Source: Octopus vulgaris
Lineage: Eukaryota
Assembly: GCA_951406725.2 (NCBI GenBank)
Contig: OX597819.1
Location: 104,842,001-104,906,000 of the forward strand
Length of the DNA: 64,000 nucleotides
Reading direction: 5' to 3'
The notes beneath the pieces were generated by a model that searched no databases, was not told the DNA's origin, and saw only the letters and a program-made list of their open reading frames with translations. How positions within the stretch are numbered: the stretch's first letter is position 1; every line of letters begins with the position of its first letter. Of the stretch, positions 7,926-60,008 are shown in pieces. The position numbers were made by a program, and so were the translations under genes.

Positions 7926-7941
7926 GAAAATAGATAATAGA

Positions 7942-25682: not shown

Positions 25683-25687
<5 letters not shown>

Positions 25688-25848
25688 ATCCAAACAAGAA
25701 AACAAAAACAAAAAAACAACAACGCAAGGACGTGGAACAAATAAAGTATTATTGGACGCTCAGGAAAGAAGGGAAGAGAAGGAGGGTTTGACGTTTCGAG
25801 CGGAGCTCTTCGTCGGAAACATAGGAGAAGGAAAGATCCCGAGAAGTA
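25683..25848 (-). mobile_element. Short (TA)n-flanked repeat with minimal hammerhead, copy 1
   Basis: Homologous to 26330-26526; hammerhead motif at 25786-25820. Confidence 0.7.
25786..25820 (-). ncRNA. Predicted minimal type I hammerhead ribozyme (U4C variant)
   Basis: Minus strand: GUUU-CCGACGA-a-GAGC ucc GCUC-GAAA-CG-UC|AAAC. Confidence 0.6.
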
Positions 25849-26268
25849 AGGTAGAATCTTATAAGATTCTACCTTACTTTTTATTAGAAGCTCTGAGTCC
25901 AATGAAGATAGCATTAGCTCTTTAAAGTCGTTCAATTTTTCTCAGTCGATCAATGGACCCATTGAGCAAAGCGATCAAAGAAGGAACCTCCAATAACAAT
26001 TGACGCAGCTGTAAGTCGAATTTGCAACAATTAAAGAATATGTAAAGATCAATATTTATACCTTGTCTTGTGTATGACGCTGTGTAGTAGACCAGTCTAA
26101 CTGGATTTACAATGCAAAATGGTGATAAACTATAATCTCTAACTCTGCCACAAGAATATGCGTAGTTCTTTACTAATCCCCCAAATTTTGTTAACTTGGT
26201 GTATTTGTATTAACAGACAACTTATAAAGTAATTTGTCCGGATTAATAATCCCTTTTAATAATTCCTC

Positions 26269-26329
<61 letters not shown>

Positions 26330-26334
<5 letters not shown>

Positions 26335-26526
26335 ATCCAAGCAAGAAAGCACACAAAAAAACACAACGCGAGGACGTGGAACAAATATAGTATTATTGGA
26401 CGCTCAGGAAAGAAGGAGGGTTTAACGTTTCGAGCGGAGCTCTTCTTCGGAAACATAGGAGAAGGAAAGATCCAGAGAAAGGAAGACAGAGGGAAAAAAA
26501 TCGCCAACGGTACACACGTGGTCATA
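26330..26526 (-). mobile_element. Short (TA)n-flanked repeat with minimal hammerhead, copy 2
   Basis: Hammerhead motif at 26420-26454: GUUU-CCGAAGA-a-GAGC ucc GCUC-GAAA-CG-UU|AAAC. Confidence 0.7.
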
Positions 26527-28544
26527 AGAACAGATGAATAATAGTTCGTTCACTACAGTTGTTTCCAACGAATTTTTTATAATTGATAAACAGAGATATT
26601 ACATCATGTGAAAAAAAAAAACGTTTTCATCAGGTGATATACACGAATTGCATATTTAAAAATCCCAAAAGTCACCAGTCTGTAGCACAGGCGTGCAGAA
26701 GAGTGTAGGTCCTTAACAGGACTCCAAAACCTTGTTCGTGCTGCTCAAGAGAATAGTCAAGCGATGGCATTGCTCAAAATTGAGTTGCAGCCGTTATGTG
26801 TGTATGTATGTATGAGTGTATGTATGTATATTTGTAGTATATTTGTACGTATGTATGTATGTAAGTATTATGTATGTGTATGTATGCATGCATATACGTA
26901 TGTGTTTGTATATATGTATGTGTGTATGTATGTATGGGTGTGAATGTATGTGTGTATGTATGTATGCAAGCATGCATGCACATATGTATGTGTGTGTATG
27001 TATGAGTGTATGTATGTATATATGTACGCATGTATATATGTGTACGTATGTGTACGTATGCATGCATATATGTATGTGTGTGTATGTATGTGTGTATGTA
27101 TATATGTATGTAAGTATGAGTGTATGTATGTCTGTATATATGCATGTGTGTGCGTATGTGTGTATGTATGTATGTATATATGTATGTATGTATGTATGTG
27201 TGTATGTATGTATGTATGTATGTATGTATGTATGTATGTATGTATGTATGTATGTATGTATGCATATGCATGTGGAAAGAGAAAGAGTGAGGAGAACAGA
27301 AAGCCCAAAAAGTAATAAACAAGAAGACAAGATAGTTTCACAATCAAAATTATTATTTTGTCGCTCGGAGAAGAGGAAAATGTTAATTTAGACGTTTCGA
27401 ACATAGTCATTCTTCAAAGTATAGGTGGAAACTGGAGCAAGGAAAATTTGTATATGTGCATTTTATCATTGATAATGTTTGTATGCATATTCATAGATGC
27501 ATGTGTACTTTGTAGAAGCACAATATGTACAGTTATATTTACGTGTTTGAATGTGAGAATGCATATTTGCATTTGAATGCATATTCGCAAATATGTTCGT
27601 GGATATGTGTGAGCAAAGCTGTGTGTGCATGAGTCATATATTGGGATAGCGAAGTGGTCGTCGTCAACATTGACTTCATCGTTTGTGTGCAAGTGTGTGC
27701 GCGCGCGCGAGCGTTTGTGTGTGTGTGCGTGTGTGTGTGTGTGTGAAATTATGACCTTATAGACATACATGTATAACTTCATATGCTGCTTTATATTATC
27801 ATATGTGACTGTATGTGTGCGTGTGCGTGTAGGTGTGTCTGTGTTCAGAAGCGCTCCAGCCACGACAATCCCAACTTTTGTATATGATTGACTGATTTAA
27901 TGTATTTTAATGAAGTAGTGTTTAATTTGAGGGACATTTGACTGATGTTTCTGACAGGTCTAGCGACCGCCTGGTTGATCTTTCCCTGTATGTCATTGAT
28001 GTATATATATTTGTGTGTGTGTGTGTGTGTGTGTGTGCTATGTGGTATTTGTGGTATTATGTGTATGTATTTGCTTATATATGTGTTCGTGGGCATGTGA
28101 GTGCATATTTTAATATTTATATATGCATATATATAGTATATATATATATGCTTTTGTATCTGTGTAGGGACATATGTGTGTATGTGTATATGTTTTTGTG
28201 CATTTGTGCCACTCCGTGTGTGTATATATGAAAGTATATATATTCATTGATATATGTATGCATAAGCATATGTATGTATACTGATATGTATGGCCGTAAG
28301 GATGCTTGCATATGTATGTGTATATATATGTGTGCATGTATGATATGTTTGTGTGCATGTATGTGTGTGTATGCATAGATATTTATATTAGTGCATGTCC
28401 GTATGTGGTGGGTATGTATAAGTGTGTGTGTGTGTAAATGTGTGCTTATAGATATGTATATTAGTGTAAGCATATTCAGAGATGTTTGTGAATGCGGGTG
28501 TGTTTCTGTGTACGTAAGAGACCATATATGTATGTGTGTGTGTG

Positions 28545-29495: not shown

Positions 29496-32400
29496 TGTTA
29501 CGTATTCTTTTGGGTTGTGTTGGGACAATAAACAACTCATTGAAGGCGTTATTATGATTCTATATGTTTATTTACTTGGCATGTTTACAAACTGTATATG
29601 TATAGTGGGGTGATACACACTGTTCTTATTCGCTTTATTCACAGTTCATACTGTTTACTAGATGCGCTTAACAAAATAGTACTAATCATAATCAAGTACC
29701 ATTTTTGGTTCTCTGTGAACAGATCTACTCCAATAGCTTGCCATGACTTTCTTGGGATGTCACTAGGTATCATTTCCTTCTTTTGTTGTGAGTTTCTGTA
29801 CCTTTGACTGATGTGGCATATAGAAGCTATCTTTACTATGTCTTTGTATATGCCTACCCAATATACAGCTGGCTTGGATCAGAGTTTGCATTTTTCTTTT
29901 CCCAGATGCCCTTGGTAGATCTTGTCAAGAATCTCTTTTTGCATTGATATGGGTATGATTATTCGGGGTCCAGCCATCAGGACTCCATTCTCTACTAATA
30001 TGTCATCATGGATGGCCCAATTTTCACGAATGAGGGGCTGCACCTGATGTCTCTTCTCTGGCCGCCCTTGAATCACCATCTGGGAAAGGAGCTGGAGTTC
30101 TTCATCTCTGTTGGCCTCCTCTTTCATTTGTTCCAGCTTTGTATTTGTCACATTTACAATGTAGTGGCCCTTTACACTGAGTCCTTCCATCTCCTGTTTA
30201 TCGTATGATGATAGTCTGGAAAGAGCATCCGCCAATATCAGGGCCTTTCCTGGCTTGTACCTGATATTGTAGTCGTACTTTTGGAGTCTCAACAGTAACC
30301 TTTGCAGTCTGGTTGGTGCTTTTGTGAGGTTTTTTTCTGTCTATTTGTTCTAGAGGGCGATGGTCTGACTCAATATTGAAATGTCTGCCATACAGATATG
30401 TATGAGACTTTTCACAGCCATAGAATACTGCCAGGAGTTCCCTTTCAATGTTTGAATATCTTGTCTCTGTAGGTGAGAGAGCTTTCGAGGCATATGCAAT
30501 AGGTTTGCCTTCTTGTATCAATGCCGCGCCAACTCTTCTCTTAGAAACTGGTTTGCGTCTGTCATAATACTTCAGAGTTGTCTCTTTGCTCACCTTCAAC
30601 CCAAATGGGAGTCAGTTGAATCTGTATCTGCCAAATGGTGTGTTGAAGGTAGTGAGCATGGATGATTCTTTGTCTATCTTTATATTCCAGTTTGCTAAAT
30701 ATCTTAGATCCAGCCAATGATAGTGTGATTTCATCGAGGGTTGGAATTGGATAGTAATCTCGTTTTAATGCCTTGTTCAAATCCCTGGGGTCGAGTCATG
30801 TTCGTAGGGTACCACTGGGTTTTTCTTTGATTACAATTGAATTCACCCAGTCAGTTGGTTGTGTCACTTTGCTGATCATTCGTCTTTTTTTTCTATTATG
30901 TTCAACTCTGCCTTCAGTTTCTCTCTTAATTCTAGTGGAACGCGGCGAGGTAGGTGAACAATTGGTTTGGCATTGGGGTCGACTGTTATATGGTATCAAC
31001 ATTTCTCAAATCACCCGACTGTATCGTCAAAACGTTCTGGATACATGCTCATCAGTTCATCTTTATTTGTGATTGGTGGTCGGTCTTTGATAGGCATATC
31101 TCTATCAATCCTGCTTGGAGCTGCCTTCACTTCACTGTTGATTGCCACAATGTTGAGCTTTTGATAGGTATTAAGTCCGAGAATTGCGAGTCCTTCTGTT
31201 CTTATGGCATAAAAAGAACACTTGATTTTTCTTCCTTTGTGTGTCCCTGTAATGGTTGTTTTGCCCAGTTGTGGAATCCTAGTACCTCCGTATGCAGTTA
31301 GGATTACATCACTGGATGTGAGGATTCCTTCTTTGACTTTATCCTATTGTGTCGTGTGTTCTGGGAACATCTTTTTGTAGAGGTTGACAGGCAAGATATC
31401 ACTCTGGGTTCCAGTATCAATCTTTAGCTTTAGATCAATGTTTATTCGTTTCTTGTTCGACTTCTTTTGGATTTGTATTGTTGTGTATGCCTCATTTTTT
31501 TTTTTCGGTTGTCATTTCTCATCTCATGTTCATTTATTGTGCCGACTGCCAAGAATTCCTCCTCTGAGGTGTTTTCTTCTTGTTGTTGGGCATGTACATC
31601 TGTTTGTCTTCTCTTTCCGCTCCTCTTCGAAAACTGGGGTTTGTATTTGTGAGATTTTGTTAGTCTACACATTTTTCCCCAGTGGTTGGACTTTCCACAT
31701 GCTTTGCAGTGTGTACCGAATGCAGGACATTTCTTCCGGTCATTGAACTCATGCTCTGTACCACAGTACTGGTATGTTCTCTGTGGGTATGTTTCATCCC
31801 ATGTCTAGATAAAATATCTTCACTGCTGTCTATTGTGTTTGTTTGTAAAGTAAGTGAGGCCAGTTGTTTGGTAGTGGCTTCAAATGCTCTTGCAGTGTCC
31901 ACTGCTTCTATCACCTGGAGAGCGTCCTTACCTATGAGGGATTTCTGGACTTCTTTATGAGCACACCCCCATATGAGTTGATCAACAATCCTTTCGTCCT
32001 TGTCTTTGAATCTGCATTTCTCGGCAACATTCTTTAGTCTGTATAGGAAGTTGTCAATCGTTTTTTGTTGGTCTTGTTTCAGACCCTGGAATTCGTACCT
32101 ATGGATTCTATGGTTTGATCTGGGCTCTAGGTATCTTTCACATCTCTCTAAAAGTGTGTCTGGATTAATGCAATCCGATTCTGACATGTCCCAACTATTG
32201 AATAGGTCTAAGCCCTTCTCTTCTGTCCATAAAAGGATGTAGCTTACCTTTTCATCGACAGTTGTACCTTTCAGGGAGCTTTTGAAAGCTAGTTGACTTT
32301 TCTATTTGAATTTCTTGAACGCTTCCACGATATCATCGGCGTCCCAGTTCATGGTCGGATGTAGATTCATCTGTATGGCGACGGGAGGACCGCCATTTTG

Positions 32401-32694
32401 GATCCTCGTGTGTGTCCGAAGACGAAGAGATATTCAGTTTGTTAAATTCAGGCTTGTTGTGTTCCTGTTTTGTTGTAATGACACGGTTTTAGTTTAAGTA
32501 TTTATCGCTGCCACCATGTTATGTTTTCTTTTGATTCGTGTTGGGACAATAAACAACTCATTGAATGCGTTATTATAATTCTACGTGTTTATTTACTTGA
32601 CATATTTACAAACTGTATATGTATAGTGGAGTGATACACACTGTTCTTATTCGCTTTATTCACAGTTCATACTGTTTAGTAGATGCGCTTGACA
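29496..32694 (-). mobile_element. Internally deleted Ty3/Gypsy LTR retrotransposon (pseudogenised gag-pol)
   Basis: Two 178-bp TG..CA LTRs (32517-32694, 29496-29673); PBS TGGTGGCAGCG (32506-32516, tRNA-Leu-like); gag ORF 31660-32187; RT (WVNSIVIKEKPSG, YPIPTLDE); RNase H (PIAYASKALSPTETRYSNIERELLAV); integrase start truncated; order RT-RH-IN. Confidence 0.92.
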
Positions 32695-35415
32695 AAATAA
32701 TATTAATAGAGGGGATGTATTCATATATACGTATCCCAACGCATACACATAGATATGAACATATAACAAGAGTGATTGATTCGGAGCCTGATGAGTTTGA
32801 TAAAATGAGGATGATGAAAAGATGAAAGACTGACAGGTTGAGAATGCCTGTGCTCGGGCTTGTCGCCAGAGCTGGATTGACCATTTAGCAAAATAAACAT
32901 GTGCTTAAGGCATCATGGGAAGAGGGCACCACAGAAATGATAAAAGAAACCACTATAAACTTGCTAAAATAATATTCGGGGTGCCTTATCTCTACAAAGT
33001 ATAGAAGTAAATGTGTTACGTATGTATCCCATCAAAGACTTCGCAATTTAAAAAAAGTAGGAGAAAACTTTTCAAATATAAAGAAAGTGGAAATACAAAA
33101 ATAAACATTATTTTCCATCTTACTGTTAGTTTTGTTTCATTTTCAAGAAATAAAAATTTATTTTATGGTTTATAATCGTTTTATATTTTGAATGACATAT
33201 ATATGGGAGCACCAAAATCTTTTACGTACTCAGGACCTCTAACGGTCTTAATGTGACCCAACGTGTCGCGCTAGTTCTTACATAAATCGTGGTGTGAAAT
33301 TATTATAGATTGGGTTGGGCTACGTGTGCTGTAAACAAGAACGAAACTCATGAACATTTTATAACATATCTTTTTAAGGAAATGCTATACACATATATAC
33401 AAGATTTTTCAGGTACTCACTGGTAGAGACTTGGGATTTAAGGATTGACCTTCACAGTGTCTAAATTCTACAGTCATTAATGGCTTACTCAAGTGGCAGG
33501 AACGAATTGGTCTTGATTGAAAATAGAGATGTGATTTTATCCGAAACACTCGAAGTTCTGCCCTTGATTTGTATGGCGAGAGGTGGGAAAATTGAGTATA
33601 TGCTGCTTACATAGAGAAGTGCATTAGAGACAAGTAATTCTTCATAACCGGTACCAAGAATCATGTGTTGCTCTTTGATGAGTCTCTCAATCTCAGCAAT
33701 TGTTCTGGTTTGTTTGGCAATAATTAAGGTGCATATTCTTTGATTGCCCTCAAACTCTGCATTTGATCTTTGAGTGGTTTTCTTATCACTAGAGATAAGC
33801 GTGCGAATCCCAAGAACATTCACTTTTGTTCCAACTTTGTGGCGTAATCTCTTTCAAGTTGATTGGCCAATAAACAGAATTTACACGAGAAACAAGCGTG
33901 GTTCACTCGTACGGCTAGCCTGATAACTTAGAGAATAGGGTTCGTATTCTTGCTACATTCAATTGTAGAAGTGATTGAAAAAGCAGAAAGAGGAGACAAT
34001 ACGCCTATGAGAGTGACTTAATGTTAACCTGACAAATGCCCCTTGCGGTGCGGGGATATTATCTAGGTTGTCTGTGCAACAGTGGTACTGTCCTAGATTT
34101 GAGTAAAATACTCCATCCTGGACTTTATCTGAGCTTTGAAAAGTTCATATCTAATAACTTACTTACTTAAACCCTTTGATTCTTAAGGTGTGTAAACCAA
34201 TGACGAATTTTCTTCACTTTTTTTTTCGATTCTGGACTTTGTCATTGATGCTTCTATAACTTTGCTATTTTTTCTAGTTGGGTTGCTGGCCCTTACAAAT
34301 CCATTTTGCTTCTGGTGGGAGCCTGGCTTCTATTTCTTGACCTGTCCAGCATGAGAGGTCCTACCAGAAGTTTGCGTTCCGGTAAAATAACTCTCATGGT
34401 CCCTGACGCACTTAAGCCACCACACTACCACAAAACCTGGACCACCTTGCGGTAGCCCAGGAGCTGTTGGAACTGAAGTATCTCCTGAACCCTGAAGAGT
34501 AAAACTGAGTAGATGAACATTATATCGATGGGGTGGCCCCACTTTCTTGATGGGGTGGCCCCACTTAAAGTTGAAAGGGCTGACTTTGGTCATACACGAT
34601 GTCTTGATAATTCTACCAGAGAACTTCGTCAAGAATACGAGATTAGTTAAACATTCGGTTACTTACACGATAATTCAAACATTATCAGCTAGTGTTACGG
34701 CCCCCAGTTTTCCACATAATGTTCACATGTGTGCCACGAATTCTTTAGGTTATTTCGAAAATGCCAGAATTTTGAGAAAAGCCGAGAGTGTTTTGTTTTG
34801 TTTTTTGTTTTTATCTATATACCTTCAGCGATATATATGTATTCATTTGTAATAACGTGCAACGCAGACCCATCTTAATATTGAAACCATTTTAAAACAT
34901 CTTGGTGTGACGAGTAATGGCAACGGTCTTCTATTGAAATAATGAAACTGTGTTCAAGTTGGGTTTCTTTCCTCAAATTGATTGTATTATCCATTGGCTG
35001 CAGAAATGTCACTGACATTTTATATTTTCTTATTCTTTTACTCTGACGTCGCGGTATTTGAACCCATAATGTACAGTTGTAACATATCTAAAACGCATGC
35101 TCTATCCCCACCCTAGATTGATACCTATTTTTAACTTTTGTTTAATCGTCCCCTAAAGTATGAAAATCAAAGCTGACGTCGACTCAGGGCGAAGAAAGTC
35201 GGAATAAATACTTCGAGGCATTCTGTCCAGTATTCTCACAGCTCTGCCAGCCTGCTGTCTTTAACGGATTATCAGATGAAAGCGTTGTTTTTTTTGTTTT
35301 TTGGGGGTTTTTTTTTTCATAAATATTTAGATAGATATATAGATAGACAGACAGACAGACAGACGGACAGACAGACGGACGACGGACAGACGGACGGACA
35401 GACAGACAGACAGAC

Positions 35416-38378: not shown

Positions 38379-38425
<47 letters not shown>

Positions 38426-38483
38426 TGTATTCATATATATATACGTATATATATTTATAAATACATACATATATACATATATA

Positions 38484-40109
38484 CAGTTGCGGCCAAAATG
38501 TTCAGAACGGCATTGTTTTCGTCAGAAAAGTAGGTATAAGTTTTTATCAAAGTTTTTTTTTATATTCTATAATTTTCACAGACAATAAATACGATATTAT
38601 TTGTTATTGTCTCAGATTTTGGTGTAATTTGAGAGGATAATACAAAAGTTATGGATGATTTACTGATTTACTGCAAAACCCATTGCGGCCAAAATGATCA
38701 GAACGGTTGCTTTTACTCCATGTTTTAGTATATTTTACCAGCGAACTCTAATGTTTTGAATTTGTTTACGTGGCGGTTCATTTACTAAACACGCCTAAGA
38801 ATATCTGCAGTGTACTTTGTTAATATAATGCCACTTACTCCGTTACCAATTCGTCAGCAGATTATTAAGCTTCGAAAGAAGTATAATTTAAGTATTAGGT
38901 CTATTGCAAAGATTGTTAACAAGTCAAAAAGTGTTGTTCACGGTATTTTTAAGGTCTACGATGATTGTGGTTCGTGTGAAGCAAGAAAGTCTACAGGCTG
39001 GCCAAGAAAAACGACCAAGAGAGAAGATCGTGCTATGGTAAAGTTGGTTAAAAAGGACAGATTTAAAACTGCTGCTGCTGTTTCTCGGGAAATGAGCATT
39101 GTACTGAAGAAAACTTTATCTCGAAAAACTTTGTCTCGTCCTTTAGTTGAACATAACCTACAAGCAAGAGCACCTGCAGTGAAGCCACTGATCAGCTCCA
39201 AGAATAAAAAATGTCGTCTTACCTTTACAACCGAACATGTGTTGTGGTCTCAAGAAAAATGACAAATGGTGCATTTCAGTGATGAATCTAAGTCTATGTT
39301 ATTTGGCTCAGATGGGAAAAGGTACGTTCGTCGAAAAGCAGGTGAAAAATTGTCACCTAAATGCCTTAAGACTAGTGTTAAATTCGGTGGAGGAAGTGTC
39401 ATGGTTTGGGAGATGATATCTGGAGATGTTGTGGGCCCTTTGCTGCGATTACATGGAAAGGTAAATGCAGGAGTTTATAAACAACTTGTAAAAGATCATG
39501 TCTTGCCTGTGCTGAGAAATTCAACTAAGCGACCACCTATATTCATGTAGGACAATGCCCCGTGTCACAAGGCTAAGGTGGCCATGAACTTCCTCAAGGC
39601 TGAAAAGGTTACTGTTATGGATTGGCCTGCTCAAAGCCCAGACCTCAATCCTATTGAAAATGTGTGGAATATTCTAGGAGAACGTTTGAAAGCCAGAAAT
39701 CCTAAAACAACCGAGCAATTATGGAATGCCCTTCAGAAAGAATGGAATAAGATCACCCAGCAAGAAATTGAAAATTTAATTTCCCCATGCAGTCGAAAAT
39801 GTCAAACTTTGATTGAAGCTAAAGGGCTTCACACTAAATATGAAATAATTCCAGCATTCTCTGTCACTTTTTGATTATTTTGTTATTTTTTCAACCGTTC
39901 TGATCATTTTGGCCTCCATGGGTTTTGCAGTAAACCACTATATCATCCATAACTTTTGTATTATCCACTCAAATTACACCAAAATCTCAGACAATACCAA
40001 TTAATATCGTATTTATTGTCTGTGAAAATTATAGAATAAAAAACAACTTTTAAAAAACTTATACCTACTTTTCTGACAAAAACAATGCCGTTCTGAACAT
40101 TTTGGCCGC

Positions 40110-40114
<5 letters not shown>
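38484..40114 (+). mobile_element. Tc1-family DD34E DNA transposon, IR/DR type, full length
   Basis: ~225-bp TIRs (cagttgcggccaaaatgttcagaacgg) each with an inner direct repeat (~38683, ~39892); TA flanks. Confidence 0.96.
38828..39844 (+). pseudogene. Tc1 transposase with two in-frame stops
   Basis: One frame: HTH region, G.PRKT, FSDES, (Q)DNAPCH, WPAQSPDLNPIEN (D-34-E counted), HTKY; stops at 39260-39262 and 39548-39550. Confidence 0.93.
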
Positions 40115-40189
<75 letters not shown>

Positions 40190-40191
<2 letters not shown>

Positions 40192-40731
40192 ACAATTGAG
40201 GGTAAAATTAATTAATCAATTTCACCAAGTGTTCAGTATGTAAAAGGACCATTTAAGGCGAATTCAAAATATTACATTATATAATTAGGGCTTAGTAAAA
40301 TAAAGTACTTTGCCACATACTGAACTTAGTAGAAATAGCAGCCAAAAAAATTTTTTTTATCCATTTCTACTACTTAAAGAAAATTTCTCTCAGATAATGT
40401 TTACTCCAGACAGCTCACGAAGGTTTGGAGGTAAATACAGAAAAATATCACAAGTACATAGATCCAAATTAAGAAATTTTGAGCTGACGAAAGAAATGCT
40501 GATTTTATTTGGCTAATCTTGAAACGTTGACGTACTCAAACGATCTATGTACTTGTGATATTTTTCTGTATTTACCTCCAAACCTTCGTGAGCTGTCTGG
40601 AGTAAACATTATCTGAGAGAAATTTTCTTTAAGTAGTAGAAATGGCTAAAAAAATTTTTTGGGGCTGCTATTTCTACTAAGTTCAGTATGTGGCAAAGTA
40701 ATTTATTTTACTAAGCCCTAATTATATAATG

Positions 40732-40732
<1 letters not shown>
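40190..40732 (+). mobile_element. Fold-back element A (191-bp arms) with hammerhead in loop
   Basis: Arms 40274-40464 / 40542-40732 near-identical; (TA)n on both sides. Confidence 0.85.
40478..40540 (+). ncRNA. Predicted type I hammerhead ribozyme (canonical C3:G8 core)
   Basis: UUUGAG-CUGACGA-AAGA...UCUU-GAAA-CGU ug ACG-UA|CUCAAA: all core bases and three stems present. Confidence 0.85.
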
Positions 40733-40771
<39 letters not shown>

Positions 40772-40773
<2 letters not shown>

Positions 40774-41048
40774 CAATTGCAGCGTGGAAGGTGTTTGTAA
40801 GCCATTTAAGAAACACACAAAAGCCGTTCGATTCACTACAACATTTAAGTTTGATTTGTCAAAATATTTTCGTTGCTATAAGACCGCGACCTGTTCGCTG
40901 ACAAAAATCCGTGCTTTTGTCAGTGAACAGGTCGCGGTCTTATAGCGACGAAAATATTTTGACAAATTAAACTTAAATGTTGAAGTGAATCGAACGGCTT
41001 TGAGTGTTTCTTAAATGGCTTACAAACACCTCCCACGCTGCAATTGTT
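40772..41048. mobile_element. Fold-back element B (135-bp arms, 8-nt loop) with G3:C8 hammerhead-like motif in the arms
   Basis: Arms 40772-40906 / 40915-41048; motif UUUGUCA-GUGAACA-g-GUCGC..GCGAC-GAAA-AUAU-UU|UGACAAA at 40916-40966. Confidence 0.8.
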
Positions 41049-41100
41049 TTCGTTCCAGCACACGATCTCAGATCAAATCACTTGCTATGCAAGTACATCT

Positions 41101-41189
<89 letters not shown>

Positions 41190-41193
<4 letters not shown>

Positions 41194-41525
41194 AGGCGCA
41201 TGACTCAGTGGTTAGAGCGTCAAACTTACGACCGTGAGGTTGGGAGTTCGAATCTCGAACCGAGCTGCATGTTGTGTTCTTGAGCAAGACACTTTACTTC
41301 ACGTTGCTCCGGTTGACTCAGTTGTAGAAATGATTTGCGACGATACTGGTGCCAAGCTATATCGGCCTTTGCCTTTCCCTTGGATGACATCGGTCCCGTG
41401 GAGAGGGGAGGTTGGTATGCATGGGCGACTACTGGTCTTCCATAAACAACCTTGCCCGGACTTGTGCCTCCGAGGGTAACGTTCTATGTGCAATCCCATG
41501 GTTATTCGTGACTGAAGTGGTTTCC
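41190..41525 (+). mobile_element. tRNA-derived SINE (different family) between TA arrays
   Basis: Head tgactcagtggttagagcg...ggagttcgaatct (box A/B). Confidence 0.75.
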
Positions 41526-41555
41526 GATATATATATATATATATATAACATATAT

Positions 41556-42336
41556 ATCTGAATGTGGCTAGGGACAGGGCAGGGCGGTGGGGGTGTTACT
41601 GATGCATTTAGCCCCAGGCGATCATCAACGTCACCAGGATGGCTGACGCCATCACGGCGTCCTCTAGCCTGCAAAAGGAGATCATTCCCCGAAGAAGCGG
41701 ATGCCACATACGGACCTAGGTTTCAAGGTGTTTGCCTATTATCAACGTATGGCAGGCACCGCTCCTCGACGAACGACTCTCTGTGCAGGCTATATATAAA
41801 GATTTTCACAGTAAATACATTTACTGATGTAGAAAATCTGTTCGACAGCAATAATAATTCTCTAAACGAGATATAGACAGTAACTGCTCCATAACATAAG
41901 GGACGTTAGCCATCTGAATGTGGCTAGGGACAGGGCAGGGCGGTGGGGGTGTTACTGATGCATTTAGCCCCAGGCGATCATCAACGTCACCAGGAGGGCT
42001 GACGCCATCACGGCGTCCTCTAGCCTGCAAAGGGAGATCATTCCCCGAAGAAGCGGATGCCACATACGGACCTAGGTTTCAAGGTGTTTGCCTATTATCA
42101 ACGTATGGCAGGCACCGCTCCGTGGCATCCGCTTCTTCGGGGAATGATCTCCCTTTGCAGGCTAGAGGACGCCGTGATGGCGTCAGCCCTCCTGGTGACG
42201 TTGATGATCGCCTGGGGCTAAATGCATCAGTAACACCCCCACCGCCCTGCCCTGTCCCTATCCACATTCAGATGGCTAACGTCCCTTATGTTATGGAGCA
42301 GTTACTGTCTATATCTCGTTTAAAGAATTATTATTG

Positions 42337-42338
<2 letters not shown>
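41556..42338 (-). mobile_element. Element C: 356-bp tandem repeat plus inverted copy, with two U3:A8 hammerheads
   Basis: Direct copies start at 41556 and 41912; inverted arms 41847-42063 / 42122-42338; hammerheads at 41707-41751 and 42063-42107. Confidence 0.85.
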
Positions 42339-42402
<64 letters not shown>

Positions 42403-42419
42403 GTATACGTATATGTATA

Positions 42420-42551
42420 ATGGTAGGGAATATAATTCCAAACTTACAAGGAAAAATTCAATTTAGCAATTCTAAATCAAAGTTCACAATATATAATATA
42501 TGAATATAATTTAGAGAAAATCCTCTATTAAGCAATTCAATAGTGAAAGAC

Positions 42552-42612
<61 letters not shown>

Positions 42613-42869
42613 ATTATTATTATTATTTTAGACCTGATGAATGACTATATTTTTAAATAGAATTAATTTTAGATCGATTTAATCTTAAATCGAATTGATT
42701 TTATTATTATTCTCTATTTGAAAATATGGCCACAAAACACGCGTAGTCAATTTACTATTTATTGTTTATGTACTTTATTGATGTTTAGAATAATGTTTTT
42801 TTATAGTATATTTATTTTTTTCTATATGGTGTGAATAACGTCTTTCGCTATTGAATTGCTTAATAGAGG
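42420..42869 (+). mobile_element. Fold-back element D with degenerate long-stem-II hammerhead
   Basis: 36-bp IR 42522-42557 / 42834-42869; GAC-CUGAUGA-(~90-nt hairpin)-aAAA-CACGCG-UA|GUC at 42631-42748. Confidence 0.65.
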
Positions 42870-42937
<68 letters not shown>

Positions 42938-44118
42938 CTCCGTACTCTGAGGTCGAATAGCGCAAACGTTATTTTTTTAATACTCCTTTCATCCATGCAG
43001 GGCCCGTCGTTAAATAAAGAACCACTTCAATGTAGTAGATTGGCAGAATTACCAGAATGCTCTTAGTTCAAATTTCATCAAATACAAATCCTATCGCTAG
43101 CCATTTCCTTACTCCTCACAAAGAGAGATGTCAAGATGGATTTTACTATGACGTCTTTCTGCAATGATACAGGTTTCCTGACTTCTCAACACAGAAGACC
43201 AAACATTTTTCTCTTTTCTCTTTTCCTTGTTTCAGTCATTTTGACTGCGGCCATACTGGAGCACAGCCTTTAGTCGAGCAAATCGACCCCAGGACATATT
43301 CTTTAGAAGCGGGGACGTAAACACACCACCATCGGTTATCAAGCGATGTTGGGGGAACAAACACAGACACACACATACATATATATATATATATACATAT
43401 ATACAACGGGCTTCTTTCAGTTTCCGTCTACCAAATTCACTCACTAGGCTTTGGTCGGCCCGGTTCTATAGTAGAAGACACTTACCTAAGGTGCCATGCA
43501 GTGGGAATGAACTCGGAACCATGTGGTTCTTACCACACAGCCATTCCTGCATTATGGACACAAGTCTTTTCCCACACTAACGAAACTTACTGAGTAATGA
43601 CTCCATAATCTCAGAAAGCTGAGAAATAATAGTACTGCCAACGATAACCATGTCTCCTTCAGGATGCAGATCATACTGTACGACTCCGATATGCTGTAGT
43701 TAATCTTATATAATATCATGTGAGTCTAGACGAGTTGTAATATATACACTGCTTAGTCTGTTTCTATATAACTCTTGTCGTCGTTGTCGCTGCCGCCTTA
43801 AACAAATGAGATCACCTTCAACAAAGTAGTTCCTCGGAATGATCACGATTGGAAAAACATTTTAACATAATCCTGCTCCATCAGGTCTTTAGATGTTATA
43901 TGTGTCTGATGTTCAATCCCAAATCAGCCCAGATCGAGTAGGTGTATGATTACAGGCTTTCTAGCCGCAATCATCCCATGTTTTTGTATATGAGCGTGTG
44001 ATTTGAGGAAGGTTTGATTGTTATTTCTGACAAACCGAGGCTTCTACTACAGCCTCGGTCCGACCAAAGCCTTCTGAGTGAATTTGGTAGACGGAAACTA
44101 ACGAGACTCTCAGAAGGC

Positions 44119-44726
44119 TGTTATGTTACTGTGGTGGTAGGAACCCGGTAAAGAATGTATAAAACACACGGTGGTAACTTTAACACGTTTATTGTGGCTA
44201 CACGCACATACACAATGGAATGAGGAATAGAATGGTAGATGGACTTCCATATATATCTACAGGCATATGCGTGGGTTGTGTGTAAGCTGTTAACCCCGGT
44301 GAGAAGCTCACGAACAGTGATGTAGGAATCAGAGCAGTGTGTTGGTGCTGTGTGGATATTGACGACGTTGGTGAGAGACATCTGGTGTGGCGACGAAGAT
44401 GGAGGTCGCTGCAAGGTGGTCAGTGATTAGACCTTAGAAAGTCTAGAACCAACTGACGTCGAACCTAGGAAGAGGTGAGCTTTTATAGCTGACGGATGGA
44501 CTCAAATGCTCGTTTGGAACAGACTGTTTGAAATGACTTATTTGCAGGTTGTGATTGGTTGGGTCGCATATTGGCGCGCGATAGAGTATGAGACAAATTG
44601 CGCCAATATCAACCAATCGGAGTGGTAGACACAACAGGATCCAAAACAGCGCCCAAAGACTAGCCGTTACCTGCTATTTTCGTATGTACTTAATATAAGA
44701 GAGGAAGTTCACTAGAGTTCGCAACA
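44119..44726 (-). mobile_element. Probable solo LTR
   Basis: TGTT...AACA ends; on the minus strand CCAAT boxes, TATAAAA (~44481-44487) then AATAAA (~44188-44193); no TSD found. Confidence 0.6.
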
Positions 44727-45639
44727 GGACTAATTTGAGGTAAAACAAAAACAAGCCACTATATTGTCGCTCGGCTTGTCAGAAATAACAATCAAATCTT
44801 CTCAAATCACACGCTCATATACAAAAACATGGAATGATTGCGGCTAGAAAGCCTGTAATCATACACCTACTCGATCCGGGCTGATTTGGGATTGAACAGT
44901 AACATCAGACATATAAATGATCCTCTAATTACCATTAATCATTAGAGACTGTGAGGAATGGAATTCGCTCCAGCAACAACCTGTACCACTTACGTCTTGG
45001 TTGTCTTTCATTTTTTGTATATCCCTTTCATTGTGTAGTTGGTCTGTAGACGTACGGCCCTTGTTGATCTAAAATGTACTATTTTGTGTTTCTTTGTAGT
45101 TTATTTTGGATTGTTGCAGAGAGATTGACGGCCCAAGCAGTGCTGATATAATCTATGATTGATATAATATATCGTTTGAACATTAATGCAGTTCGTTAGC
45201 CCGCTTTTTAAATCGTTTGGTTTCTTTTTTTAGACGAACTTATATTTTTATCACATTCAGTGATAACCATCGGAATGTGTGGCATTCCGATTAGACATTT
45301 TAAAGTTGTTGTTTAGTTCCCAAATCAACCCTAAACAAGCTTAAAGGAATTCCAGCTAGTTATTTATTCTTCGTATTAATAGTTATCGCCATGGACACAG
45401 GTTCGTGTGTCACATAGCTAGCTAGAGGTGATGGCTACTTGGAGCTAATCAACGGCAGCATTCGTCCTATTTTTCTAGACTGCCATGTTTGCTTGGCGAT
45501 AAGTATTAATATCCAATACCGCTGCCGTAGTCACCTTTAGAGAAAGACTTATAAATATTAATATTTCTATTTATTCTTCGTTTTTGCAAAAAAAAAGATA
45601 ATCTAGATATGTTTTACAAACCCCCCATAGGCCCCATAA

Positions 45640-51890: not shown

Positions 51891-51935
<45 letters not shown>

Positions 51936-52004
51936 ATAGAAATGGCAAGACAACGAAAAAATGAAAGAGACCTCGATATTATGTAAATAGAGGAATTTAT
52001 CTGT

Positions 52005-52200
52005 AAATATAATATGTGACAATTATTCAGTAGCTATAATAAAACTTCAAGTTTCAGATGTCGGGGCGGAAACACACGCTGGCATCTCTTCAGTTATCAA
52101 TGGCCCAATAACTGAAGAGATACCGGCATGTGTTTCTGCCCTGACATCCGAAACTCAGAGTTTTATCATGGCTACCGAATTATTGTCACATATTATATTT
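52005..52200. mobile_element. Fold-back element E (93-bp arms) with a hammerhead motif in each arm
   Basis: Arms 52005-52097 / 52108-52200; plus-strand AUAA-CUGAAGA-GAU...AUCc-GAAA-CUC a GAG-UU|UUAU at 52108-52166; TA array nearby. Confidence 0.75.
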
Positions 52201-52299
52201 AATATATACTTAAGACAATTTGTACTTATTCATTTTTCAGTTCTTTAATTTAATATAATCATCTTATATAAGACCATACTGGACCACTACATTGAAAAT

Positions 52300-52604: not shown

Positions 52605-54586
52605 TCAGTCTGACGTCATTGGACTGACTCTACTTGAAGTGTTGGTAATCTGGTCTAACGGCAAACAGGACGAAAGATCTGTTGAACCAGAACTCGTTAC
52701 TTGTACAATAATTTCTCCATTGGCTGTTGTTGGGATGTTGATTGTATTAGCAGTGATATTAGCAGCAGATGTTAAAGTGCTAACCTGCTGTATGGTAGCT
52801 GGTGTCGGTTGAAGACTTGGTGGTAGGATCAACTGAAGTGAAGCTGAAGGCAAACCAGCTGCACTGCATTGTTCAAGAAGTTCGTTTTTGATATTTGAAG
52901 CATCAATGTCAACACGAGATATTTGGACATTAATAGGAATGGTGCCGGTCTGTGAAGTATGTTGGGATAGGATATGAAGAGGGATTTCGGATGTGGCAGA
53001 ATGGTGTTGTTGGTGGCTCGTCAAAGTAGGACTTAGAGGTGAATTCACAATGCTTATTTGCTCAGGACGTTGTCCAGCAACTTGGTTAGGTAGAAGCTGA
53101 GTACTGAGTGATGCTGCCGGCATACGTATGAAAGGCAAAGAGATATTTGAAATAAGCTGTAGAGTGTTGGGAGCTGCCTGCAAGAATTGTGGAGTAACAA
53201 TGGTACTCTGCTGTGGCTGGCTACTCAACAAGATACCATTCATAACACTCTGAGCACCACTACTTACAGATGGACTACTCACAGTTGAAGGTAACACTTG
53301 CGACACTGTCGTCTGTGAGCCAGTTGCTAAAGTTGATAAAGGGGCTCCTATTGAGTCCCTTGGCAGGCAATGTACTGTCTGAGATGTATGATCAACCAAG
53401 TTTTGGCTGATAGTCTGGGGTAGACTACCAGCTTGGCTTTCTAAAGATGCAGAATTTGTGGATTGTGAGAAAATAATATTATTAGAAGCCAAGTCTTTAG
53501 AAATTGATATAAAAGACGAACTGCTTGGTGTCATCGCTATCGTCGCTGGGGTACTGTTTGTTGATGATAGTGTTACTTGTTGTTGTAGCCGCTGCTGTTG
53601 TTGATGTTGTTGTTGTGATTGTGGTTGGCCACTGACTAAAAGAGATTTTGAGGTCACCAAACTTTTTAAAATGGGTTGCTCTACATCTGAAGAAACTGAA
53701 TTGCTGCTCAGGTTCCCAATATTCAAGAACGATTGTTGACAAACAGGAGCACTTTTATTCGATTTTGAAATGTGTGGCGCTGTGATGATGTTGACAATGG
53801 ATGATGTGGATACCAAAGAAGGAGACTCCGACACAGATTTCACAGATGAGCTGCTCCCAGCACCAACAAGTAATGTTGCAAATTTGTTAGTAGAAGACAC
53901 TGACTGGTTACTATTACTATTGTTGGTTGTGTTAGCAGTGAGAAGACTTGTCAGAGTTTGTGGTGAAGAATCTTTCATAGTATGGCTTGCCTGAGAGTTC
54001 ACTGGCACCATGGGATTCTGTACTTCAAGCACTCTCATCGTTGAAGTCTGCAGAGCCTTTTCAATATCTCGGTGTTGTCGCATGTGACTTCGTAAAGAAT
54101 CCTGTCGGACAAACGAGGCATTACACTGCACACAGCAAAAGGATTTCTTGCAGTTTGGTTTGATTCTCATTTGAGATCCACCAGATGGTTCCAGATTTGT
54201 TATAGGTGAAGAATTGGTGCTTGCATTAGCAGAAACTTTCTCGATAGGTTCTGATTTTTTGCGAGAACCTGTCTTCCTCTTCTGTTTCAGTTTGTCTGAA
54301 TGTTTCTTTGCCATGTGAGTTTTCACATTGCTGTTCTGTTTGGAAGTGTAGGCACAATAATCACAAGAGAATGGACGATCTTCACTGTGTGTGCGCAGGT
54401 GGTTAATTAATGCACTTTTACGGGAGCACTGATATGGACAAGATGGACATTTGATGGGGCGGTCAGTATCATGAGTCTTGATATGTTCTCGGTAACTCTT
54501 GCGAGAAGATGTAGCATAATTACAATTATCACAGTGGATCTGGTCATCTGTTGAGTGGTTGATTCGATAGTGACTTTTGAGGTTAG
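52605..54586 (-). CDS. ZFP64: ZFP64-like terminal coding exon: fingers 6-10 and long S/Q/T-rich C-terminus
   Basis: Acceptor cctacag|CT AAC CTC (ANLKSH); three further tandem fingers, isolated finger FCCVQCNASFVRQDSLRSHMRQH; TGA at 52605-52607. The five exons total 3429 nt = 1143 codons with no internal stop. Confidence 0.93.
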
Positions 54587-55228
54587 CTGTAGGAGAGAGA
54601 GAGAGAAAGAGAGATAAATTCAGTGATGGGTATATCATCATATTTTTAAATATGATGGCTAAGAGTTGGGAAGCAAAACATTCTACAGAAACAATCAAAT
54701 GGACATTTACAAATATACACATGAGGGTGTAGGACAAAGGTGGGATCAAAAAAAGGAATATTGTTTTAGGGTTACAATGATAAATATGTTGGCAGTGGTG
54801 GTGGTGGTGGCGGCCTTTTCATTAACATCATCATCATCAAGTTTGTATTTGTGCAGGCAGCTTTTGGTAGGGGTGGCAAGAGTAAGGATAAAAATTAACT
54901 TTAGTGGTGGGGAGGGTGTTGGGTAAGTGTCTTCCTTCAATGCCATAAGTTCACCAAAGTCTTGTTAGTAAAATTTGGTAGACAGAAGCTATGCAAAAGC
55001 TTGTCAGATGTGTGTGTTTGTGTGTGTGTGTGTGTCTATATACATACATATGTGTTCATGTATGAATGCATGTATGTATGTAGTTTTGCGTGTTGTATGC
55101 ATGTATGACAGAGGGAAGAGTGAGAGAGAAGAGACAGAAAGAAAGAAAAACAGAGAGAAGAAGAGACAGAGAGAAGATGGGAAGAGAGACAGAGAAAGAG
55201 AGGTGATTTGGCAATATATATGCCATAC

Positions 55229-55431
55229 CTTTAATTGAACACCTGTAATCACAGAGATCACACTTGTATGGCTTCTCCCCAGTGTGGATGCGGACATGTC
55301 GCTTGAGGTCTGAATTTATTTTGAACTTTGCATCACAAAGTTGACATTGAAATGGTGAGTCCCCTGTGTGTGTACGAATGTGGACAATCAACTGACTGGA
55401 ATTACGACTGGCATATGGACATATCTGGCAC
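55229..55431 (-). CDS. ZFP64: ZFP64-like exon: fingers 4-5 and start of finger 6
   Basis: ctacag|G TGC CAG...; CQICPYASRNSSQLIVHIRTHTGDSPFQCQLCDAKFKINSDLKRH, very close to recalled ZFP64 fingers; donor AAAG|GTATGG. Confidence 0.95.
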
Positions 55432-55519
55432 CTGTAGATATAACAAACAACACACAAATATGTTAGCATTATTTCAGTTTTAATCCGTCTGACTTCTGTT
55501 ATCTTTTACTTACCTTTTA

Positions 55520-55554
<35 letters not shown>

Positions 55555-55557
<3 letters not shown>

Positions 55558-55950
55558 TTAGTGTCCACTTTCCATGCTAGCATGGGTTGGACGGTTCAAC
55601 TGGAGTCTGGGAAGCCAGAAGGCTGCACCAGGCCCAGTCTGATCTGGCAATGTTTCTACGGCTGGATGCCCTTCCTAACGCAAACCACTCCGTGAGTGTA
55701 GTGAGTGCTTTTTACGTGCCACTGGCACAGGTGCCAGACGAGGCTGGCAAACGGCCACGATCGGATGGTGCTTTTATGTGCCACCGGCATGGGGGCCAAG
55801 CAAGGCTGGCAATGATCGGATGGTGCTTTTTATGTGCCACTGGCACGGAGGCCAGTCAGGGTGGCGCTGGCAACGGCCACGTTCAGACGGTTCTCTTACG
55901 TACCACCGGCACTGGTATCACAGCTGCAATTTCCATTGATGTTGATCGAT
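55555..55950 (+). mobile_element. Intronic repeat following (CAT)n with internal tandem subrepeats; related copy ~56455-56770
   Basis: tttccatgctagcatgggttgga...ggatgcccttcctaa...(gtgcttttacgtgccac) repeated in both copies. Confidence 0.7.
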
Positions 55951-57503
55951 TTCGATTGTAAAATACAATTTCTTGTTTCAGTTTATTTATTTTGGTCATT
56001 CGATTGCAACCATGCTGGGGCACCACCCTGAAGGATTTAGTCAAACAACTCAGTATTTATTCTCTTTTTTAAGCCTGATACTTATTCGATCAGTCTCTTT
56101 TGCCAAACTACTAAGTTACAGGGCTATAAACAAGCCAACACCATTTGTCAAGCAGAGGTAGAGGACAAACACAAAGACACACACACATAGATATATACAA
56201 GTGTGTGTGCATGTGTGAAGTGTTAGGTGGCTGAATAGACATAGATATATGTGTATATACTAAAGAGGAGGGCTGCTCAGAAAGCAAGAGCAATGCCAGC
56301 TCCTAACTCTGCTATTACATACTCCCACTGCAACCATGAATTTCAGCCAAAATTAGCCTAATAAGCCACTTCAGGACCCACAAAATGTAAAGCTGATAAT
56401 CTGGTCATCTTCACGGACATGAAGTAAGAATGTCACGTGTGTGTCATCATCAACACCATCATTTAACATCTGTTTTCCATGCTAGCATGGGTTGGATGGT
56501 TTGACTAAAGACTGGCAAGTCAGCAGGCTGCACCAGGCTCCAATTTGCTCTGGATGCCCTTCCTAATGCCAGCCACTCTGAGAGTGTAGAGGGTGCTTTT
56601 TACATGCCACCAGCACAGGAGTCAGTCAGAGGGCACTGGCATCAAAAACAATCAGTTGGTACTTTTTACATGCTACCATCACAGGAGCCAGTCAGGGGGC
56701 ATTAACATTGACTATGTTTGCAAGGTGCTTTTTACGTGCCACTGGCACAGGAGCCAGTCAGGGGGCACCATCATCACACACACACACACACACACAATGG
56801 GCTTCTTTCAGTTTCCACCTACCAAATCCACCACACAAAGCTTTGATCAGCCTGAGGTTATAGGGGAAGACATTTACCCGGAGTACCACACAATGGAACT
56901 GATCCCAAAACTGTTACTGATATTTATTTATTTATCTTATCAATTGGCACAGGAATAATTATGTTATGACGTTTGTCTTGTCACCAGAGGATTCTGACTC
57001 CTGGATTCAATCTTACTGCATGGCTACCTTGGGCAAGTGTCTTCTATTATACTACCTACTGTAACCTCAAGACACCCAATGCCCTGTGCGTGTATTTTCT
57101 AAACAGAAACTGGAAAAAAACATATCACATATGTGTGTGTGCATTATTTTTTATGTGGGTGAGTGAGTGTGTATGTGCATGTAGATGTGTTTGTGCTTAT
57201 GTGTGTATATGTGTATGTGTGCACACAAGTGTGTTTGTGTGTGTGATTTTCACTAACATGTGTTGGTTTGCAATATCCCACAAGCAAGAAGCCCCATAGT
57301 TTCACCTCTCACTGTGTAAGAACCAGTGGATCAGCAAATGCTATGTAGTTGAACAGAATTCAAAATAACTCAAGGCAAATATATAACAGGCCAATCACTA
57401 GTTCACTGCATTTCCAACAGAGGGAGTGATGAGGGAGTGTCATCTGTGCAACAAAGATGGAATAAAAACCCCATGGTATTTTACTCCATCCACCCATCCT
57501 ACA

Positions 57504-57543
<40 letters not shown>

Positions 57544-58585
57544 TATGTACATCTGTGTATGGTTAAGAAGTTTGCTTCTTAATCACATGAACTCAGGTTC
57601 AGTCTCACTATGTGGCATCTCAGGCAAGTGGCTTCCACTTTAGCCCTTAGGTTGACCCATGCCTGATGAGAGAATTTGGAAGACAGAAGCTCAAAAGTTG
57701 TGCAGAAGTCCTCATATATCTGATTAAGGAGAGGTGATCAGCAAGGGTACTCACCAACAATAACCACAATTTATTAACTCACAACAGTAGATTTCACCAT
57801 TTCTTCCATACCATCCATTTATTTGTTTATTAATGTCTGTTTTTTCCATACTAACATGAACCGGAGGGGTACAAATCTGAAGCAGGATTTTACAGCCAGA
57901 TGCTCTTTGTGTCATCAGCTCTGACTTGTTTTTCAAATAAGGAAATTTATTTTTATTTCATGCATCTCTCAAAGCTCAGAACAACTGCTTGTAATGTCAT
58001 CAAGAAATGTAAACATCATTTCACTGAAGCAGTGACAAATTGTGGAATATCAACATTCATACACACACATCCATAAATATGCACACACAAACACACACAC
58101 ACACAAACAAACAGCTTCTTGTAGTTTCTGTCTACCAAATTTACTCTCAAATCATTAGTTATCCTGGGTCTATAGTAGAAGGCACTTACCAAGATGCCAA
58201 GCATGGAACTGAACCTGAGACCAGGTGACTACAAAGCAAATACTTCAATCACACAGTTATGCTTGTAATCAATTTTGTAGTCTATTGGCAGTTGATTTAC
58301 TGTTCCTTTCGTCGACTGTCTTACCATCCACTATACCAGTCAATTTACCATTTCTTTTACTATTTCCCTTAACAGTCAATTTACTACTCTTTTTACCAGT
58401 CAACATGTCCTCCCTTTCATCAGTTATTTTTACATGCCTTTTATTACTCCTTTACCAATTCCTTTACTATTCTTCATTAACATCTCTTTTACCACTGATT
58501 CTATTAATCCTTTTGTCAGATACTATGCCAATTCAGCAATGCTACAGAAGTGGCACAAAAACAACAGAATTTGATACCAACTCAC

Positions 58586-59837: not shown

Positions 59838-59924
<87 letters not shown>

Positions 59925-59939
59925 TGTGTGTGTGTGTGT

Positions 59940-59992
<53 letters not shown>

Positions 59993-60008
59993 GTATGGAT
60001 ATACATAC

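Follow-up and report, generated by a model that had tools for sequence, protein, structure and literature searches.

How four unrelated, ribozyme-bearing fold-back units came to lie close together in one TA microsatellite, and which machinery placed them there, is the question raised by a locus of Octopus vulgaris. The locus was analyzed within a stretch of 64,000 nucleotides (the window; contig OX597819.1 of assembly GCA_951406725.2, positions 104,842,001 to 104,906,000), which is AT-rich, repeat-dense animal DNA with a GC content of 38%. The units, designated A to D, lie between positions 40190 and 42870 (Table 1). A preliminary description had regarded them as a stack of non-autonomous, TA-targeting ribozyme retroelements. 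The present analysis points to four unrelated hammerhead repeats that are likely the result of four separate insertions by Penelope-like reverse transcriptase (RT)/GIY-YIG proteins, in which one RNA was probably copied from both cut strands. As judged from its sequence, the cluster is composed of three Penelope-type ends (A, B and D) and one retrozyme (C), together with a short interspersed nuclear element (SINE) and a Tc1-type transposon.

The hammerhead core N3-UGA-N-N8-A with a Watson-Crick 3:8 pair, GAAA and UH at the cut is present in A, B and C in the window, and in D only in the family majority. Three different 3:8 pairs occur: C:G (A and D), U:A (C) and G:C (B). A strict scan for type I hammerheads found three cores in the region (one in A, two in C), whereas 100 dinucleotide shuffles gave 0.01 on average. 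A relaxed descriptor, requiring a palindromic stem III and permitting one unpaired base after A9, added B, giving four cores in the region (0.01 in 300 shuffles, none with more than one) and five in the whole window (0.2 in 20 shuffles). The relaxation was made after B had been spotted by eye; the unpaired base is described as a conserved feature of Penelope-type hammerheads (PMC4209133; this and the other papers cited here are represented by the parts of their text that were available). No hammerhead family was present among the best 150 of 251 Rfam matches at E<=10, which were microsatellite and hairpin noise. The claim of a type I hammerhead in every unit holds for A, B and C, whose cores exceed the shuffles, but not for the copy of D, which has A for G12 at 42734 and fails both scans. 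Stem I measures 6, 7, 6 and 3 bp in A, B, C and D, respectively, and stem II 4, 5 and 3 bp in A, B and C, with a long hairpin in D. Stem III is near-palindromic in A and has homodimer energies of -10.8 (A), -0.2 (B), -11.4 (C) and -8.1 (D) kcal/mol. Monomer folds of A and C favour alternative pairing over the hammerhead core. An unpaired base after A9, followed by a G10.1-C11.1 pair, is present in B; the corresponding place is taken by A-U in A, U.U in C and A.C in the D copy.

Apart from their ribozymes the units share one layout. In each, two copies of one 3' region are joined 5'-to-5', with both 3' ends facing outward into (TA)n. An inverted 5'-truncated copy is present in all four, and in all four a tail is found on one arm only (84, 54, 65 and 102 nt in A, B, C and D), bearing out the Penelope-type anatomy that had been proposed. 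The inverted repeats span 195 nt with 6 mismatches in A (40270-40464/40542-40736), 135 columns with 6 mismatches and 1 gap in B (40772-40906/40915-41048) and 217 nt with 2 mismatches in C (41847-42063/42122-42338). The long inverted repeat ascribed to every unit is therefore found in these three but not in D, where it covers 36 nt with 1 mismatch (42522-42557/42834-42869). In A, C and D the tail-less arm crosses the ribozyme and the tailed arm ends 8, 6 and 89 nt behind the predicted cut, respectively, while in B both arms pass the ribozyme. Unit B had been given a right limit at 41048; it runs on to 41103, including its tail. The units were rightly called mutually unrelated, as no pair scores above its 100 shuffles. 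Any target-site duplication at A to D is masked by (TA)n, as is also the case in Naiads (PMC8557442). A CAATTG motif near the outer ends of A and B was not above shuffles.

Table 1. Features of the TA-rich region in window coordinates (a full stop marks features given without strand)
Feature	Coordinates	Strand	Basis
Tc1-type DNA transposon with broken open reading frame (ORF), outside the ribozyme units, in the same array	38405-40112	+	inverted self-match (90%), Pfam
(TA)n array, left side of A	40113-40188	.	
A inverted arm with ~84-nt tail, 5' limit 8 nt behind predicted cut	40190-40464	-	
A sense arm, 5'-truncated, 3-nt overlap with the other arm	40462-40732	+	
A hammerhead, type I, core CUGACGA (C3:G8), predicted cut after 40534	40478-40540	+	scans
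(TA)n array, A-B interval	40733-40772	.	
B inverted arm, decayed ribozyme copy (U4C, one stem II pair lost)	40772-40914	-	
B sense arm with 54-nt tail at 41049-41102	40915-41103	+	
B hammerhead, type I, core GUGAACA (G3:C8 swap), predicted cut after 40959	40916-40966	+	relaxed scan
(TA)n array, right side of B tail	41104-41189	.	
tRNA-type SINE (putative)	41190-41526	+	RNA polymerase III A-box 41201, B-box 41244
(TA)n array, right side of SINE	41527-41546	.	
C sense arm, 1.6 copies of 356-nt non-coding unit, two intact hammerheads	41556-42121	-	
C hammerhead 2, sequence identical to hammerhead 1, predicted cut after 41713	41707-41751	-	scans
C hammerhead 1, core UUGAUAA (U3:A8), palindrome ACCUAGGU, predicted cut after 42069	42063-42107	-	scans
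C inverted arm with 65-nt tail, 5' limit 6 nt behind predicted cut	42122-42338	+	
(TA)n array, degenerate right part	42338-42419	.	
D inverted arm, consisting of the common 3' end (36 nt) and a 102-nt tail	42420-42557	-	
(TTA)n(CTA)n(TTA)n tract at D junction	42553-42627	.	
D sense arm	42628-42870	+	
D hammerhead, decayed in window, core CUGAUGA at 42634, predicted cut after 42745	42631-42748	+	sequence, fold
(TA)n array, right side of D	42871-42934	.	

The bounding of the units by (TA)n was confirmed by the mapped arrays (Table 1; the array starting at 42338 is regular up to 42395). All eight outer ends of A to D lie inside (TA)n, which makes up 1.7% of the window. The four units do not all adjoin one another, since the SINE separates B from C. 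This SINE was called tRNA-type by its A-box and B-box patterns; ARAGORN found no tRNA in it, and three diverged matches occur elsewhere in the window. The Tc1 element, which abuts unit A, has terminal inverted repeats at 38405-38709 and 39892-40112, is flanked on both sides by a TA tract, and matches the Pfam families HTH_Tnp_Tc3_2 (E 2.5e-16) and DDE_3 (E 3e-13). Because the Tc1 element and the SINE occupy the same array as the ribozyme units, the TA array is a general sink for several element types, and TA targeting need not be peculiar to the ribozyme units. We infer that the stack was built by successive independent insertions, each leaving fresh targets.

Two further ribozyme-bearing elements in the window, outside A to D, also abut TA arrays. 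One, at 51894-52215, is a fifth element of the same design, with (TA)n followed by a head-to-head pair at 52004-52201; each arm has a CUGAAGA core, GAAA, a palindromic stem III and U17, and the junction, like that of B, immediately precedes stem I. These hammerheads were read by eye and are detected by neither scan. The other, at 25683-26640, has a minus-strand type I hammerhead at 26637-26550 with a long loop II, the 3' part of which terminates in (TA)n at 26329; another truncated copy reaches (TA)n at 25682 and is followed by a 36-nt palindrome at 25844-25879.

Information on other copies of the units was obtained from contigs of public runs, aligned to A+B and to C+D at 80% likeness, with three organism labels for each. 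One of these runs may be the source of the window. Contigs numbered 17840, 11241, 5637 and 1538 per run on A+B, and 3295, 1588, 1727 and 38 on C+D; a third of the bins of C+D is without cover in run X19. The units thus belong to multi-copy families, as had been proposed. The figures given below as percentages of contig depth are not copy numbers. The family majority repairs the broken cores of D and B. In D, G12 is restored by a G at 42734 in 89%, 96% and 95% of the depth (runs X1, X3 and X5), and a majority G at 42739 (79-90% in the same runs) perfects the stem III palindrome; X19 has no cover at the D hammerhead core. In B, the family letter at 40897 restores U4 of the inverted arm in 98-99.6% of the depth in all four runs.

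Inverted junctions of the other copies vary. In B they run from 40814-40867 to 40915-40950 and from 40914/40915 to 41024-41064; most of the best 15 of 120 joints on A+B either link 40817-40867 to ~40915 or are of the second kind. Among the best 15 of 33 joints on C+D, junctions were found at 41883>42135, 41948>42167 and 41955>42202 for C, and at 42478>42835, 42486>42814, 42499>42752, 42516>42819 and 42523>42816 for D. Because the junctions vary between copies, there are no fixed terminal repeats and an artefact is unlikely. These observations bear on two other explanations. It could be argued that the fold-backs are miniature inverted-repeat transposable elements (MITEs) or Foldback DNA transposons with TA target duplications, in which ribozyme motifs are incidental. 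Unit B does resemble a 277-nt palindrome between TA runs, and a Tc1 element with TA flanks is adjacent. However, fixed terminal inverted repeats in all copies, by which such transposons are recognized, are lacking: arms are unequal, junctions vary from copy to copy, and B has unrelated flanks at 40915 in hundreds of contigs. Moreover, the cores exceed chance and the broken ones of D and B are repaired by the family majority, making this explanation very improbable. Hardly credible is the explanation that both the fold-backs and the stack are artefacts of assembly at microsatellites. No listed contig spans the A+B or the C+D stretch, so that the order of the units is without independent confirmation, but the arms differ by 1-5%, and comparable joints, both inverted and tandem, recur in contigs from runs that bear different organism labels. 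In this respect the preliminary description, which took the fold-backs to be real, was upheld.

The arms also carry information on the template. Of 23 usable positions at which the window differs from the family majority, 14 have the same minority letter in both arms (2/6 in A, 6/11 in B, 6/6 in C), and at the remaining 9 the second arm carries the family letter. Hidden rows, rows below 50% and rows without a mirror position were left out of this count, and one of the C positions in it is close to an end site. The shared letters fit one template per insertion. They are explained equally well if a single cDNA was made and the same elements became inverted by fold-back DNA synthesis, or if they did so by self-priming on antisense RNA or DNA, rather than by two primed strands; such an origin has been proposed for head-to-head Penelope junctions (PMC3846280). 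In B the junction is an almost perfect hairpin whose arms are 8 nt apart, which would suit it. In A, C and D, however, the arms are 58-276 nt apart, with unpaired, ribozyme-bearing DNA between them, and end at two different outer sites, while purified Penelope protein was reported to extend both strands (PMC11167929). Self-priming or fold-back synthesis is therefore considered a rather unlikely origin of the inversion.

Copying of one RNA from both cut strands by Penelope-like proteins would proceed as follows. The endonuclease would nick both DNA strands in an AT-rich tract. On one template, synthesis of two cDNAs would begin at two fixed positions separated by 54-102 nt, and the distance between these positions would be seen as the tail. 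The cDNAs would end at unequal points close to the ribozyme and then join at their 5' ends. Each insertion would split the tract and leave new targets, because of which elements would pile up. A purified Penelope protein was shown to cut AT-rich DNA on both strands and to extend both, with two internal RT starts that bound the tail (PMC11167929). Several observations weigh against this explanation. The purified protein began at sites non-homologous to the cut DNA, and ribozyme cleavage was not needed (PMC11167929). In vitro cleavage was reported for one of nine Xenopus retrozyme dimers (10.64898/2026.07.22.740005). The tails of A to D, of 54-102 nt, are to be set against 30-40 nt in print, and no RT/GIY-YIG ORF is present in or beside A to D within the window. 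The flanks of the long ends of B are mixed AT-rich DNA and not TA runs (agreement 0.49-0.5, a value biased by the repeat-skipping method). The stem III homodimer of B is very weak and its cut triplet is UUU. Finally, the minority letters that both arms have in common could also stem from gene conversion, from a common subfamily or from fold-back synthesis.

Whether the units are complete elements or ends of larger ones differs between the families. Unit A is a truncated copy, because its family continues with shared sequence upstream of 40462 in all four runs (loose ends in 4-10 contigs each, agreement 0.77-0.86). The upstream part of D is hidden by microsatellite. Unit C carries a direct repeat of 210 nt (99%) with a spacing of 356 nt. 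Its cut-to-cut unit has a circular fold of -120.1 kcal/mol (z -5.05 vs 60 shuffles), and its longest ATG frames encode 33 aa in sense and 104 aa in antisense. A head-to-tail joint of C was found in three of four runs (X1, X3 and X5); the tandem joints stem from other copies, because their junction letters differ from those of the window. An independent X19 contig ends in TA exactly at the C end 41847. Because of its two intact ribozymes 356 nt apart, sense ORFs of at most 33 aa, circular fold and tandem joint, C is assigned by its sequence features to the non-autonomous retrozymes, the sole unit of the four for which this could be done. Retrozymes have been given a working definition (10.64898/2026.07.22.740005), into which C falls. 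A tandem of two units, both containing a complete type I hammerhead, is present in C but, in the window, not in A, B and D. The dimeric hammerheads of C would cut out a 356-nt RNA, which would then circularise.

The description of all units as non-autonomous can thus be retained for the tandem, non-coding C; A, B and D are short ends that may derive either from autonomous elements or from short non-autonomous families. A related possibility, which is that of the preliminary description, is that all of A to D are dedicated non-autonomous families within a single TA-specific system of ribozyme retroelements; its mechanism overlaps with the insertion by Penelope-like proteins preferred here. It would agree with the non-coding, tandem nature of C, with the (TA)n location of all outer ends in a window poor in (TA)n, and with the nearly fixed point, ~15-20 nt upstream of the ribozyme, at which B copies start (108-209 contigs per run). 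On the other hand, the A family continues upstream, the corresponding part of D is hidden, the array is shared with Tc1 and the SINE, and the locus was chosen for its TA arrays. A single dedicated system is accordingly regarded as improbable, though less so than self-priming.

The B family is very abundant: in X2, X3 and X7, 108-209 contigs per run have a loose end at 40915 and 140-220 have one at 41102. Most copies start at the point mentioned above and end at ~41102, with mixed flanks; the family could be a short one, or it could form the end of some larger element. Its hammerhead has a stem I of 7 bp, one unpaired G, a stem II of 5 bp starting from G10.1-C11.1, the palindrome AAUAUU and U17. 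Stems I and II are part of the minimum-energy structure (z -2.73; 3 of 200 shuffles did as well). Among the best 40 of 73 variant rows no change is seen at positions 3, 8 and 17, indicating that the swapped G3:C8 pair is the family letter. The U17 and the very weak predicted stem III dimer count against cleavage activity of B. In the laboratory, the C3G/G8C double mutant restores hammerhead cleavage partly (PMC11167929; PMC8495972). The same swapped 3:8 pair is found in B, with the difference that in B it belongs to an abundant natural repeat. The only natural 3:8 change reported in the accessible texts is U3:A8 (PMC3088659; PMC4209133), and a natural G3:C8 hammerhead was not found in the literature searched, which included the available parts of PMC3088659 and PMC10085705. 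B-like loci from DNA pattern scans of metagenomes (0 and 1) and viral sequences (4) were rejected as chance, since all five match B over at most 26 nt.

At both ends of the B family (40915 and 41102) a short inverted motif is present, with the same few AT-rich letters beyond both; this motif could either be a hairpin at a circle junction or reflect a short target duplication. No circular or tandem joint of B was found among the best 15 of 120 joints. A Helitron-like reading of B, based on a 3' hairpin, is not supported by the inverted junctions.

The role of the ribozymes in insertion may be reflected in the ends of the arms. In the D family 14 loose ends were found at 42750 (X1), and at least four joints at 42750-42753 among the best 15 of 33, that is +5 to +8 from the cut; majority letter changes at 42749-42750 may clip the alignments, so that the true ends may lie nearer to the cut. 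Together with the limits of A (+8) and C (+6), these ends could reflect either cleavage of the template or stalling at stem I. Frangieh et al. found that none of their RNA-seq reads stopped at the cut (PMC11167929). It can be speculated that the ribozymes act in the insertion cycle in vivo, with one cDNA stopping at a cut template, that B is an active natural G3:C8 ribozyme in a repeat that ranks among the most abundant of the genome, that one twin-primed Penelope machinery mobilises C:G, U:A and G:C cores alike, and that C is the footprint of Penelope enzymes copying retrozyme circles. This combination is offered tentatively, and is at present rather to be doubted than accepted.

A candidate source of the enzymes is found at the left end of the window. 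Bases 9-721 encode a decayed Penelope-like RT with 77 homologues by full phmmer (best E 2.8e-32), confirming the RT remnant proposed at 100-720; 73 of the 77 align back to this remnant. RVT_1 was found in 8 and GIY-YIG in 6 of the 12 homologues scanned. The cysteine linker, a Neptune and Nematis feature (PMC8557442), is present in 17 of the 20 homologues longer than 600 aa. Word-indexed protein searches, Pfam, PDB and phage tblastn gave nothing for the remnant. A second Penelope remnant had been placed at ~20630-20950. The frameshifted remnant at 20620-20950, which may resemble a Penelope endonuclease, is without database support, having no Pfam match and no tblastn match from the 77 proteins at E<=1e-3. 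The RT remnant and A to D are 39 kb apart and have no sequence in common.

Further repeats and genes surround the cluster. Exons of a minus-strand C2H2 zinc-finger gene are located at 52605-63616; downstream of the last long ORF, at a distance of ~10 kb, lies the A to D region. A broken remnant resembling a long terminal repeat (LTR) retrotransposon lies at 29496-32707, with 191-nt direct repeats at 92%; one of its ORFs has no Pfam match. Arrays of a 185-bp tandem repeat (at least 3 units each, ~90% alike) are found at 10855-11844 and 21042-21626. A MITE-like element at 43910-44898 has a 130-nt inverted repeat (96%) around ~730 nt. Two fold-backs in which no hammerhead was seen are a short head-to-head one at 7830-7930, with outward poly(A) tails and adjoining a (GATA)n tract, and one of 207 nt at 60976-61182. 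Kinship of C with the latter was rejected, as its score merely equals that of the best shuffle.

Beyond the literature examined, in the parts available, are the natural G3:C8 core of B and the arms of A, C and the D family that end 5-8 nt behind the predicted cut. The role of hammerheads in Penelope-like elements and the origin of the inverted structures are stated as open questions (PMC8557442; PMC11167929). If the reading of C is true, the proposed link of retrozymes to Penelope enzymes, so far based on co-occurrence and sequence similarity, would gain a mechanistic footprint. Both B and C escape descriptors restricted to CUGANGA, so that ribozyme counts in such genomes would be too low. In the A to D families three natural core variants can be compared side by side, and arm ends can be mapped against the cut site in thousands of copies. 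If neither the activity of G3:C8 nor the footprint of C holds, the locus would be an ordinary repeat pile in a microsatellite.

On sequence grounds, the overall layout of A to D is that of the published footprint of Penelope-like elements, inverted pseudo-LTRs (pLTRs) plus a tail. Naiad and Neptune insertions have an inverted 5'-truncated copy, a tail at one end and a (TA)n bias (PMC8557442; PMC3846280). With Penelope, Neptune and Naiad insertions A to D share the inverted 5'-truncated copy, the one-sided tail, a partial tandem and (TA)n or AT-rich targets (PMC8557442; PMC3846280; PMC11167929), but they differ in having tails of 54-102 instead of 30-40 nt and no coding part. Furthermore, arm limits here cluster just behind the ribozyme cut, whereas Frangieh et al. 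found no RNA-seq ends at the cut (PMC11167929).

Minimal type I hammerheads have been described in Penelope-like elements, 100-700 bp apart on opposite strands (PMC4209133). Like these pLTR hammerheads, the ribozymes of A to D have a type I fold and a small, palindromic stem III, for which dimerization is predicted to be necessary. The U3:A8 variant (as in C) and an unpaired base between 9 and 10.1 with G10.1-C11.1 (as in B) were also found there, as were many unrelated families per genome and opposite-strand pairs (PMC4209133). In contrast, the G3:C8 swap with U17 of B is not described in the available part of that paper, and A to D are without a link to an ORF. Retrozymes have already been argued to be non-autonomous Penelope derivatives (10.64898/2026.07.22.740005). 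The 356-nt non-coding tandem unit of C, with one type I hammerhead each, resembles the metazoan non-LTR retrozymes, of which the mussel units measure 350-390 bp (PMC7229834) and for which mobilisation by Penelope-like elements has been proposed (10.64898/2026.07.22.740005). The difference is that A, B and D are not tandem in the window and that C, known here from DNA sequence, has a Penelope-type inverted arm and tail, not described for retrozymes in the available parts of these papers (PMC7229834; 10.64898/2026.07.22.740005).

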